From positions 288,001 to 352,000 of the forward strand of contig CAWBCJ010000029.1 in assembly GCA_963787255.1 (NCBI GenBank): a stretch of DNA of 64,000 nt, given 5' to 3'. This stretch comes from Methanobacteriota archaeon (GTDB lineage Archaea; Methanobacteriota; Methanobacteria; Methanobacteriales; Methanobacteriaceae). Numbering within the stretch: position 1 is the first letter of the stretch; each line of letters opens with the position of its first letter. Both the position numbers and the translations under genes were made by a program. Shown piece by piece: positions 60,416 to 63,943 of this stretch. The notes beneath the pieces were generated by a model, which saw only the letters and a list, made by a program, of their open reading frames with translations, did not search any database and was not told the origin of the DNA.

Positions 60416-60859
60416 TTATGCTGGTATTAAATGTGTTGCGCCTCTGTATACATGTTCTTTACCATGTACTGAGCAATAATCAGCATCACATCCCCCTTTA
60501 GCCATGTTACAGTATAACATCCCTTCAGGACATCCGCCACCTCTTGTAAAGCTTAGTGTTCCATATTTATGGCATTGAGGACAATAATTTACCCATGATT
60601 TACTATGAGATGCACAATTAGTGAACATACTACATGAACATTCACCTCTTGTAGATATAATTCCTCTTTTTTGAACTTTGGATTTAGCATTTACTTTTTG
60701 TTCAGATGGAAGTTCTGCGGTTGCCATAACAAGTGAAGACTGGGCAAAAGTAGATTCATCTTTTGATACATCCTGGCTATTTATGGTTCCTGAAAAAAAT
60801 AGACCCCCTATAGCCATGCAAAGCACCATTATAGATATATATAGAGATCTTCGCTTAAT
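60416..60859 (-). CDS. Secreted Cys/His-rich protein with a probable ATT start
   Basis: GGAGGAG RBS lies 5 nt before ATT (60859), giving (M)KRRSLYISIMVLCMAIGGLFF. C-terminal CSC, CPQC, C..EG..YC and CDADYC..HG.EH motifs. Confidence 0.75.
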   Translation of the reverse strand: MKRRSLYISIMVLCMAIGGLFFSGTINSQDVSKDESTFAQSSLVMATAELPSEQKVNAKSKVQKRGIISTRGECSCSMFTNCASHSKSWVNYCPQCHKYGTLSFTRGGGCPEGMLYCNMAKGGCDADYCSVHGKEHVYRGATHLIPA

Positions 60860-61340: not shown

Positions 61341-62465
61341 TTGATGAATCTAGAAAAACTCAGAGCTCTTGGGGATTCTGCAAAATATGATCTATGTAAC
61401 TATGTAAGTGGTAACATTGAAACTTACGCCGAAGGTAAAATACCCGGAGTTTATAACAGTACTTCACCAAGTGGGCACTGCATGCCAATATTTAAAGTAC
61501 TTATGACTAATAAATGCTCTAATGACTGCAAATACTGTATGAACAACACTAAAAATAAATTAGAGCGTTATGAATATGAGCCAGAGGAACTTTCAAGATT
61601 ATTTTTAGATTATTATAATAAAAGGTACGTTGAAGGTTTATTTTTAAGTTCAGGAATTAGAAATGAAATCGATCCCTCCATGGAAAAAGAGATCGAAGTT
61701 GCCAGAATATTAAGAGATTATGGATATGACGGCTATATCCACCTTAAAATAATTCCAGGAACGTCTTTTGACCTTATAAAAAGAGCAATGAAACTTGCAG
61801 ATAGGGTAAGTATCAATATAGAGTCTGCAACTCCTGATGGATTAGAGGAAATTACCACAACGAAAAACTTTAAAATCGATATTTTAAGGCGTATGAAATG
61901 GATTAACAATCTTTCTAAAAAAGACGCAACTCTAGCTCCTTCAGGCCAGACCACCCAATTCATTGTTGGGGCGACTGACGAAACTGATGAGGAATTTCTT
62001 AAAAGAACAAAGTGGCTTCACGATAAATTTGAAATCAGAAGAAGTTATTTCAGCGCATTTAATCCCCTGAAAGATACTCCTCTTGAAAATCGTGATGAAC
62101 CTCATCCTATGAGAACTGCAAGACTTTATCAGGCTGATTTTCTGCTTAATTCATATAAGTTCCGTCTTGATGAACTTATTTTTGATGAAAATGGAAATAT
62201 TGAAACAGAAATAGATCCAAAATATTCCTTTGCCATGAATAACCTAGATTTATTCCCGATAGATGTGAACGAATCATCATTTAATGAACTAATAAGGGTT
62301 CCAGGGATTGGAAAGATTTCAGCTAAGCGAATCATAACTCTCAGAAAACGTGGGATGAAAATCAGTGGATTAGAAGAACTAAAAAATTTAGGCGTTGCTG
62401 TAAAGCGTGCTGAACCTTTTATTAAGCTTAATAACTCTTATCAAAGTACTTTAGTAGGACTTTAA
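61341..62465 (+). CDS. Radical SAM protein with helix-hairpin-helix (putative DNA modification/repair, TIGR03916-like)
   Basis: AKYDLC, CSNDCKYC, EGLFLSSG, YIHLK, RLYQADFLL and VPGIGKISAKRI. Confidence 0.88.
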   Translation: MMNLEKLRALGDSAKYDLCNYVSGNIETYAEGKIPGVYNSTSPSGHCMPIFKVLMTNKCSNDCKYCMNNTKNKLERYEYEPEELSRLFLDYYNKRYVEGLFLSSGIRNEIDPSMEKEIEVARILRDYGYDGYIHLKIIPGTSFDLIKRAMKLADRVSINIESATPDGLEEITTTKNFKIDILRRMKWINNLSKKDATLAPSGQTTQFIVGATDETDEEFLKRTKWLHDKFEIRRSYFSAFNPLKDTPLENRDEPHPMRTARLYQADFLLNSYKFRLDELIFDENGNIETEIDPKYSFAMNNLDLFPIDVNESSFNELIRVPGIGKISAKRIITLRKRGMKISGLEELKNLGVAVKRAEPFIKLNNSYQSTLVGL

Positions 62466-62483
62466 TTCTATTTTTATACATAT

Positions 62484-62637
62484 AAGTTATATCTTCTTAG
62501 TTTTAAGTTAAAATTTATAACTGATATGTTATAACTTCTTAGTTTTAAGTTACAAGTTATATGTTAAAATTCATAACTAATATGTTATAACTAATAACTT
62601 CTAAGTAATTACTTATAAGTTATAAAGAATAAGTTAA
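62484..62637. repeat. Array of 22 contiguous 7-bp units, consensus AA(G/C)TTAT, candidate centromere-like parC/parS site
   Basis: Parses without gaps as aagttat atcttct tagtttt aagttaa aatttat aactgat atgttat aacttct tagtttt aagttac aagttat atgttaa aattcat aactaat atgttat aactaat aacttct aagtaat tacttat aagttat aaagaat aagttaa. G or C occupies position 3 in 19 of 22 units. Confidence 0.85.
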
Positions 62638-62703
62638 AATGATCTTCAAATCTTGCCATAAAACATATTTGTATTTTTTGTGGCATGCAAAAATCTATAA
62701 TTT

Positions 62704-62731
62704 TTAACCCTCAACACATTTTGAGGGTTAA
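62704..62731. terminator. Hairpin downstream of the parA operon
   Basis: TTAACCCTCAA-cacatt-TTGAGGGTTAA perfect 11-bp inverted repeat. Confidence 0.65.
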
Positions 62732-62758
62732 CATTTTTTTTTAATCATTAAAAAAAAA

Positions 62759-63115
62759 TTATATACGTTCTTCAAACAACTCCCAAATTTCAGGATATTT
62801 TTCTTTCACTGCTTTTTCAATTAAAAGAGACGCTTCACTGCTGATGCTGAATTCAGGCTCTGTTTTCCTTAAATATCTCAAAACAGCAGCCGATTTTGCA
62901 GACCAAAGTGAAATACGTGGATTTTTCTTTATTTCAGCTAAAACTCCATCAATAACTTCTTCATTTAATTCCAAAACATTATCTACAGTTAATTTTTCAT
63001 CATGCTCTTCATCGGGAATGACTGTTTTAGGATCATCTTCTTTAACGTATTTTTTACTAATTAAAGCATCGAGCCCCCGTCCAAGCGCGCCACCCTGTTT
63101 TTTATCGGTGCTCAT
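62759..63115 (-). CDS. ParA partner protein with ParB-like LGRGL peptide and predicted ribbon-helix-helix domain
   Basis: GGALGRGLDALI at the N-terminus and C-terminal RISLWS / AKSAAVLRYLRK / SISSEASLLIEKAV strand-helix-helix pattern. Overlaps the parA stop by 14 nt. Confidence 0.75.
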   Translation of the reverse strand: MSTDKKQGGALGRGLDALISKKYVKEDDPKTVIPDEEHDEKLTVDNVLELNEEVIDGVLAEIKKNPRISLWSAKSAAVLRYLRKTEPEFSISSEASLLIEKAVKEKYPEIWELFEERI

Positions 63116-63887
63116 TATTTCCCTCCATTTCTAATATCTCATCAGCAAGATCCATATAAGCAACAGAACCTTTACACTCTTCATCATAGATGATACATGG
63201 TTTTGCATGGCTTGGAGCTTCTGCAAGCTTAACATTACGAGGTATAGTTGTTTTAAAGATATTTTCTTTCTCTCCAAAGTATTCAATAACATTGCTGTAT
63301 ACTTCTCTTCCAAGCCTTGTTCTGGAGTCATAAAGAGTAAGAAGAATCCCTTTAATTTTTGAAGGACTGTCAAGACGGTTTGAGACGAGTTCCATAGCTT
63401 CTATAAGATCTGCCATCCCTTCAAGAGCATAAAATTCTGCTTGAATTGGGATAATAACACTATCTGAAGCTACCAACGAATTTATGGTTAGCACGCCGAG
63501 AGATGGAGGCACATCAATAAAAATATAATCGTAAGAATCTTTAATAGTTTCTAATTTTTCTTTTAATATGGAATGAAATCCTATTTCCCCACTTAATTCA
63601 ATTTCAGCACCGCTTAAAGATATATTACTTGGAACGATGCCCAATCTATCAATTCCCGTGGGCATTATAGCTTCCGAAATAGAGTTTTTTCCAGTTAAAG
63701 TTGTATATATAGTCTTTTCAAGTGTGTTTTTCTCTATTCCAAAGCTTGTAGTGGCATTGCCCTGAGGATCAATGTCTACAAGTAAAATATTTCTGTTATT
63801 AATGGCCAGTGCAGTTGAAAGATTAACTGCAGAAGTGGTTTTACCGCAGCCTCCCTTCTGATTTAATATTGCAATTATTTCACCCAT
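63102..63887 (-). CDS. parA: ParA/Soj family partition ATPase
   Basis: Deviant Walker A NQKGGCGKTT, DIDPQGNAT, IDVPPSLG, PIQAEFYALEG and IPRNVKLAEAPS. Confidence 0.95.
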   Translation of the reverse strand: MGEIIAILNQKGGCGKTTSAVNLSTALAINNRNILLVDIDPQGNATTSFGIEKNTLEKTIYTTLTGKNSISEAIMPTGIDRLGIVPSNISLSGAEIELSGEIGFHSILKEKLETIKDSYDYIFIDVPPSLGVLTINSLVASDSVIIPIQAEFYALEGMADLIEAMELVSNRLDSPSKIKGILLTLYDSRTRLGREVYSNVIEYFGEKENIFKTTIPRNVKLAEAPSHAKPCIIYDEECKGSVAYMDLADEILEMEGNNEHR

Positions 63888-63896
63888 TTTGAGCGC

Positions 63897-63943
63897 CCTC
63901 CAATTTACTTCTAAATTGTAAGTTATAAGTTATAATATTTAAA
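63897..63943 (-). promoter_or_regulatory. parA promoter with in-register heptads between TATA box and RBS
   Basis: Minus-strand TTTAAATA at 63936-63943 and GGAGG RBS at 63897-63901. Heptads tacttct aaattgt aagttat aagttat at 63906-63933 match the downstream array. Confidence 0.7.

Follow-up and report, generated by a model that had tools for sequence, protein, structure and literature searches.

Among described systems, the SegAB pairs of the Sulfolobales come closest to the locus analysed here. In both, segA and segB overlap in one operon, SegB joins an unstructured N-terminus to a homologous core that keeps W56 and P72, and the sites lie next to the operon as 7-bp units around a central G or C (S). 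The S. solfataricus site reads TCTAGA-S-TCTAGA (PMC12284271), and residues K52, W56, P72 and K75 of S. solfataricus SegB make base contacts or join neighbouring dimers (PMC8682754). A preprint describes S. acidocaldarius SegB as a different dimer with an intramolecular sheet (PMC12139799). SegB homologues from Methanobacteriales and other euryarchaea have already been published. SegA of a euryarchaeal clade is described as ~40 aa longer (PMC12284271), and near segAB of Thermococcus sibiricus the same source reports no S. solfataricus-type site and supposes a different euryarchaeal motif (Kabli et al., PMC12284271). In the preprint, 22 euryarchaeal SegB sequences are listed, homologues are called scarce, their N-termini are treated as domains of unknown function, and transfer from the Sulfolobaceae to the ancestor of the Methanobacteriales is proposed (PMC12139799).

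Other systems resemble the methanogen operon in part. Bacterial chromosomal ParABS (Soj/Spo0J; M. xanthus, PMC12462528) shares with it a closely related ParA, the ParB pocket, an N-terminal motif and origin-proximal sites. However, methanogen SegB has an RHH (ribbon-helix-helix) fold in place of the ParB/Srx CTPase domain, the GxRR box and the HTH, and heptad arrays stand where bacteria have a 16-bp parS. The plasmid proteins omega (pSM19035, 1IRQ/2BNW) and ParG (TP228, 1P94) likewise combine an RHH with a flexible, ParA-stimulating N-terminus, and omega binds heptad repeats, as the title of 2BNW states. Unlike them, methanogen SegB is chromosomal and has extra helices, and the omega and ParG peptides are without the chromosomal ParB motif. 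HpaAB of Haloferax volcanii pHV3 is, by its description, an archaeal ParA of bacterial origin with a small disordered RHH adaptor whose N-terminus touches this ParA; in contrast to methanogen SegAB it acts on a secondary chromosome, and that description does not call the adaptor SegB (PMC13722703).

The window, a stretch of 64,000 nucleotides from a member of the Methanobacteriaceae, contains a 118-aa ORF that carries exactly the segments quoted in an earlier note on this DNA; it lies on the minus strand, and the plus strand is closed there (Table 1). It has a ribosome site of the GGAGG type, and its start overlaps the end of an upstream parA, which we call segA. The setting is chromosomal, close to oriC on a contig of 1.09 Mb. 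Positions 62699-62758, after the segB stop and before the downstream heptad array, hold a 16-nt inverted repeat (88%) and T-rich runs, a candidate terminator region. On the far side, a radical SAM protein with a helix-hairpin-helix tail (61341-62465, plus strand; 342.7 bits against TIGR03916, cut-off 343.5) converges on the array. Farther off, in AT-rich surroundings, a 137-aa ORF (60416-60829, minus strand) has a hydrophobic N-terminus and a Cys-rich C-terminus with a weak zinc-ribbon match.

Table 1. Features of the segAB locus, in positions of the window.
Feature	Position	Strand	Remark
segB	62759..63115	(-)	118-aa SegB-family RHH protein, predicted centromere-binding adaptor
ParA-binding motif, ParB type: LGRGLDALI, residues 11-19, central R13	63059..63085	(-)	profile match
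Linker, residues 20-50: acidic, predicted disordered, length varies across family	62966..63058	(-)	
Core, residues 51-115: helix 1, strand PRISLWS, helices 2-4	62771..62965	(-)	alignment and model
segA, 261-aa Soj/ParA ATPase, bacterial chromosomal type	63102..63887	(-)	14-nt overlap with segB
Main candidate centromere (segS), 22 in-phase TAA-S-TTA heptads	62483..62636	.	between converging gene ends
Short run of 4 heptads, 2 of them perfect; candidate second site and operator	63905..63932	.	just upstream of segA ribosome site

The 118-aa protein belongs to the archaeal SegB family and is not a ParB. A phmmer search of the PDB returned S. solfataricus SegB (7DUV, E=1.4e-11), and a profile of 39 homologues aligned with 7DUV without gaps across the core (E=5.8e-14), at a core identity of ~35%. 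Of 1558 candidate homologues, 1535 score at E<=0.001, far beyond chance, and the closest named ones belong to Methanobacterium. The ORF matched no family in Pfam or NCBIfam, and an Atlas search with a segB homologue gave only unnamed archaeal clusters. Modelled as a full-length monomer, the protein gave a poor structure (pLDDT 59) with no match in Foldseek, and a model of the core (residues 48-118, deeper alignment; pLDDT 94) was used instead. This core folds as helix-strand-helix-helix-helix, an RHH with extra helices, and superimposes on SegB 7DV2 with a TM-score of 0.79 (rmsd 1.9 A, Foldseek E 1.7e-3). The PRISLWS strand is unpaired in the monomer model; by analogy with 7DUV, SegB would dimerise through an intermolecular beta-ribbon. 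The earlier note had proposed a structural comparison with SegB, omega and ParG, and in a VIA search SegB came out closest (7DUV, Z 8.9), ahead of omega (Z 4.7) and ParG (Z 2.8), both of which are 6-14% identical to the methanogen protein with no PDB sequence match.

The earlier note was thus right about an RHH C-terminus, and right that a ParB core is missing: no ParB/Srx domain is matched in Pfam, the GxRR box is absent from this protein and from all of its 120 closest homologues (G.RR in 0/120), and the sole folded domain is the SegB RHH rather than an HTH parS-binding domain. The parts that it recognised are confirmed, but the protein is a euryarchaeal member of a published family and no orphan chimera; the note had overlooked that family identity, the helix before the strand (residues 52-64) and the heptad arrays that flank the operon on both sides. 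In the alignment, R67, W71, P87 and S90 correspond to K52, W56, P72 and K75 of S. solfataricus SegB, whose K52, G54 and K75 are replaced by R67, S69 and S90. The change of K52 to R has been noted for SegB of euryarchaeal genera (PMC8682754). The 11-position SegB signature used as a filter in PMC12139799 is matched at 8 positions (KNPRI.LWS) and differs at positions 6, 10 and 11.

A bacterial ParB-type peptide at the N-terminus, also claimed in the earlier note, is borne out by profile searches. Among 177,635 PDB sequences, the best match to a profile of 46 SegB N-termini is residues 6-18 of Thermus Spo0J (E=0.011). The same profile matches the N-termini of all three Soj-linked ParB ORFs recovered from four bacterial loci, with no match to the Noc paralogues of those loci. 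In M. xanthus ParB, the motif likewise occupies residues 11-19, and R13 is critical for ATPase stimulation (PMC12462528). The motif of residues 11-19 recurs in 118/120 close homologues, 69/70 loci and 77/80 further loci, and a looser form in 78/148 distant representatives. In those 77 loci the central residue is mostly basic (K 42, R 27); M (5) or L (3) in the other eight counts against a strict copy of the M. xanthus mechanism. S. solfataricus SegB has only an LDFLL remnant, whereas methanogen SegB has the full peptide. Searching longer proteins with residues 1-40 gave none at E<=10 among 159 candidates, and tblastn of a 22-aa peptide against plasmids gave none; the peptide is too short for such databases. 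Of the 31 linker residues between peptide and core, 10 are acidic and 5 basic, and the full-length model gives pLDDT <50 for residues 25-47, in agreement with the acidic, probably disordered linker of the earlier note.

The partner ATPase is of the bacterial type. Against the PDB, SegA scores E=8e-67 with 8RAY, 8e-60 with 6IUB and 4e-53 with 1WCV, but only 2e-19 with S. solfataricus SegA (7DUT), and it is 45-50% identical to four bacterial Soj proteins. It has 261 aa, compared with 220 aa in S. solfataricus. When residues are equated through the alignment to 8RAY, the equivalents of M. xanthus D60, Y81, E117, L150 and R238, of the signature lysine and of R189, presumably DNA-binding as in B. 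subtilis Soj, are invariant in 65/65 SegA sequences. The catalytic aspartates are kept. At the acidic pocket positions E82 and D110, SegA mostly has S/T and S/A, respectively, and bacterial Soj also varies there. With the residue roles given for M. xanthus ParA in PMC12462528, SegA, judged by alignment, keeps the residues of the bacterial ParB-binding pocket. The coupling to segB is tight, with parA just upstream in 68/70 loci. The own genome also holds three ParB_N matches (L079-L081, on two other contigs), which we rejected as SegA partners: none lies beside segA and two lie among phage-like genes. Those two adjoin methylase-like and terminase-like ORFs and read as prophage-like by sequence.

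Flanking the operon, we find tandem pseudo-palindromic heptads of the form TAA-S-TTA. Of the 22 in-phase units downstream of segB, 16 deviate by no more than one mismatch and 20 by no more than two; in 2000 shuffles of the region the count with at most one mismatch never exceeded 5. The array is unique in its genome, where the next best stretch has four such heptads. The short run upstream of segA is weak alone, as 176/2000 shuffles reach its count. Runs of three heptads nevertheless occur upstream of segA in 67/68 loci and downstream of segB in 42/68, against 0/68 inside the segA ORF, a control that is lenient because it is coding. When all 64 palindromic heptads are ranked, TAA-S-TTA comes first in 68/70 loci and ties in the other two. 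Divergent homologues have other heptads in the same position: TGA-S-TCA (L181), AAG-S-CTT (L202), AAA-S-TTT (L172) and ATA/AAA types (L176, L177, L179); at L175 and L178 we did not find a clear promoter array. The Sulfolobales unit, by comparison, is AGA-S-TCT, and the methanogen arrays further differ from the Sulfolobales sites in being long, phased and confined near one origin. On this evidence the TAA-S-TTA array is likely to be the SegB centromere, and it is a concrete candidate for the motif supposed for euryarchaeal SegB.

In some distant homologues, the DNA that encodes the segB linker is itself a heptad array. The genes concerned are those of L181 (1048-1863), L202 (1303-1758), L175 (1228-1878) and L174 (706-1746; coordinates with segB oriented forward), and further cases are L203 (1692-2468) and L091 (1-80). 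Identity at lags of 7, 14, 28 and 35 is 0.40-0.47 in this linker DNA, compared with 0.25-0.27 after codon shuffling (0/1000 shuffles reach it), and in L181 and L202 the linker unit is identical to the unit of the segA promoter array. The 7-residue repeats of distant SegB linkers would then be translated candidate binding sites, and the 14-aa repeats (42 nt) reported in Metallosphaera SegB may perhaps have the same origin. For the present SegB and the Methanobacteria linkers tested, we rejected this reading of the linker, as 7-bp periodicity is not above background.

A segB match is present in 239/251 genomes of the class (202/210 of good quality), in 14/121 genomes of the Thermococci phylum and in 18/401 of the phylum that holds the Methanotrichaceae, six of the last not counted as SegB, although these and the other survey counts are not independent because the genomes are kin. 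The six weak matches (L182-L187) were set aside, with no parA found alongside and no heptads. Named loci include Methanotrichaceae, Thermococcaceae and Archaeoglobaceae. The 70 loci of the class comprise the 30 best matches and 40 chosen for spread over genera among those listed with coordinates. In the Thermococci phylum, heptad arrays are found in 13/13 SegB-positive genomes, with 4-14 matches each and many far from the operon, and in 0/20 SegB-negative genomes, a co-occurrence that amounts to one or a few events because the genomes are kin; the 13 may be one clade. The negative set is the first 20 listed; the positive set excludes a 14th genome, whose SegB is divergent.

The survey also turned up variants of the cassette. 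One or two additional segA-segB cassettes are present in some genomes of the class (L211-L214); their N-terminal motif is degenerate and their strand ends in FWD, and L211 has a different 7-bp tandem array upstream. These cassettes may be orthogonal systems that belong to integrated elements. Where one chain holds two SegB-like matches (L174/L188; P0194, P0195, P0205, P0207 and similar), the protein is possibly a single-chain RHH pseudo-dimer. A viral scan gave one locus, L203, where a segA-segB cassette with a repeat linker lies on a 22.7-kb contig filed as viral, which suggests that the segAB module can ride on mobile elements.

In the own genome, runs of three heptads (<=3 mismatches) occur at only four places, at 350.5, 351.9, 372.7 and 384.3 kb of the contig that holds segAB; the two distal ones are intergenic, ~140-180 bp upstream of a gene start. 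On the same contig, cdc6-1 lies at 386.3-387.4 kb and ten clustered ORB-like repeats at 387.5-388.2 kb, so that cdc6-1 and the ORB cluster are 35-37 kb from segAB. The heptad arrays are distinct from the ORB repeats. GC skew has no inflection at this place and does not mark the origin. We took cdc6-1 as a proxy for oriC, with repeat support in the own genome only, and surveyed 23 near-complete genomes (22 on single contigs and one on four). A 21-base heptad pattern gave 214 matches, compared with 11 for its reversed control, and was present in 22/23 genomes, G037 having no three-heptad match at two mismatches. In 21/23 genomes segB lies within 5% of chromosome length from the best cdc6 (cdc6-1), and that 10% of the chromosome contains 75/88 array clusters, or 44/55 of those more than 3 kb from segB (chromosome lengths rounded for eight genomes). 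Departures are G027, with six of seven clusters 180-716 kb from cdc6-1, and the segB to cdc6-1 distances of 309 kb in G003 and 117 kb in G087. A distant class member (G001) has six near-perfect arrays 30-94 kb from segB (contig C1, 1073.6-1136.5 kb) and none at the segAB operon at the stringency used.

Family, fold, operon, motif, pocket conservation, arrays, their position and their co-occurrence with segB were all computed directly. Taken with the analogy to described systems, they lead us to propose that SegB is probably the centromere-binding adaptor of a euryarchaeal system in which a ParA drives segregation of the chromosome's origin region. Residues 51-115 would dimerise as a ribbon-helix-helix, and one dimer would read one pseudo-palindromic heptad through R67 and W71. 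Using the P87 loop much as S. solfataricus SegB uses P72, dimers would form a coat on the phased arrays, of the kind that omega also forms. Loading by such coating would therefore need no CTP clamp. N-terminal peptides, held out in large numbers on the acidic linkers, would occupy the pocket at the dimer interface of SegA in its ATP-bound and nucleoid-bound state and, like bacterial ParB, stimulate hydrolysis. As the arrays are clustered around oriC, we propose that a diffusion ratchet draws sister origins apart. Autorepression of the operon is the likely role of the short array at the segA promoter.

Given how much is shared with the Sulfolobales, SegB might instead coat the arrays to compact or organise the chromosome, with SegA as a non-sandwich dimer or an elongated structure and no nucleoid gradient. 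Both groups share the DNA-binding core and sites with 7-bp geometry, and compaction and bipolar SegA structures are what has been seen for SegAB. We nonetheless consider this mode unlikely: methanogen SegA is ~40 aa longer than that of the Sulfolobales and much closer to bacterial Soj, it retains the signature lysine of sandwich dimers together with the arginines for DNA binding and the pocket for ParB, and in S. solfataricus the pocket region and the peptide differ (PMC12462528).

RHH proteins are often repressors, and the heptads could simply be operators of segAB and a few other genes, with no centromere. The promoter run is indeed the most conserved site, and in the own genome both distal arrays are intergenic and precede a gene start by ~140-180 bp. 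Against this, the largest array has a gene 3' end on either side and so sits where a promoter has no use, the arrays cluster near the origin and not at functionally related genes, and a plain repressor needs neither a ParA-binding peptide nor strict coupling to parA; repression alone therefore seems to us very improbable. Least probable of the three is that another protein binds the arrays, or that the system serves chiefly to time replication, with SegA acting on Cdc6/Orc1 in the way that Soj does on DnaA, rather than to move DNA. The proximity to cdc6-1 fits such a role, as does G003, in which one array is 5 kb from cdc6-1 although segAB is 309 kb away. However, the presence of arrays follows that of SegB, their sequence changes with the SegB lineage, and they are not ORB repeats. 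Segregation of the origin region by SegB and SegA thus stays our preferred reading.

More tentatively, and with somewhat less than even confidence in the whole, the data can be joined into one account. Euryarchaeal SegAB would be a true hybrid ParABS: its motor would be a bacterial Soj, its RHH reader would bear the activation peptide of bacterial ParB as a graft, and its heptad centromere, close to the origin, would be common to lineages from Methanobacteria to Thermococci. It would be the near-universal segregation machine of Methanobacteria. It would also be the older form of the family and Sulfolobales SegAB a trimmed derivative, opposite in direction to the transfer that PMC12139799 proposes, and in several lineages centromere repeats would have invaded segB and been translated as linker. 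New here, relative to the literature searched, are the ParB-type peptide with its pocket and the candidate euryarchaeal centromere. We did not find the peptide match or the kept SegA pocket in the literature on SegAB, whose supplements or first description of 2012 might show the motif in alignments, nor the TAA-S-TTA arrays and their association with segAB and the origin in the published SegAB literature searched.

How Methanobacterium, Methanobrevibacter and Methanothermobacter segregate their chromosomes is not established in the literature that we searched. The literature on Sulfolobales SegAB proposes a link between SegB and round cells, whereas the hosts of methanogen SegB are mostly rods. 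The near-universal presence of segB in the class, with an N-terminus that carries a ParB motif, contrasts with the scarcity and unknown function given in PMC12139799. Here nature would offer a ParA motor that works with a ParB peptide and no CTP clamp, and the heptad arrays provide an origin marker for these genomes. If the array is the SegB centromere, then chromosome segregation in methanogens becomes directly testable.
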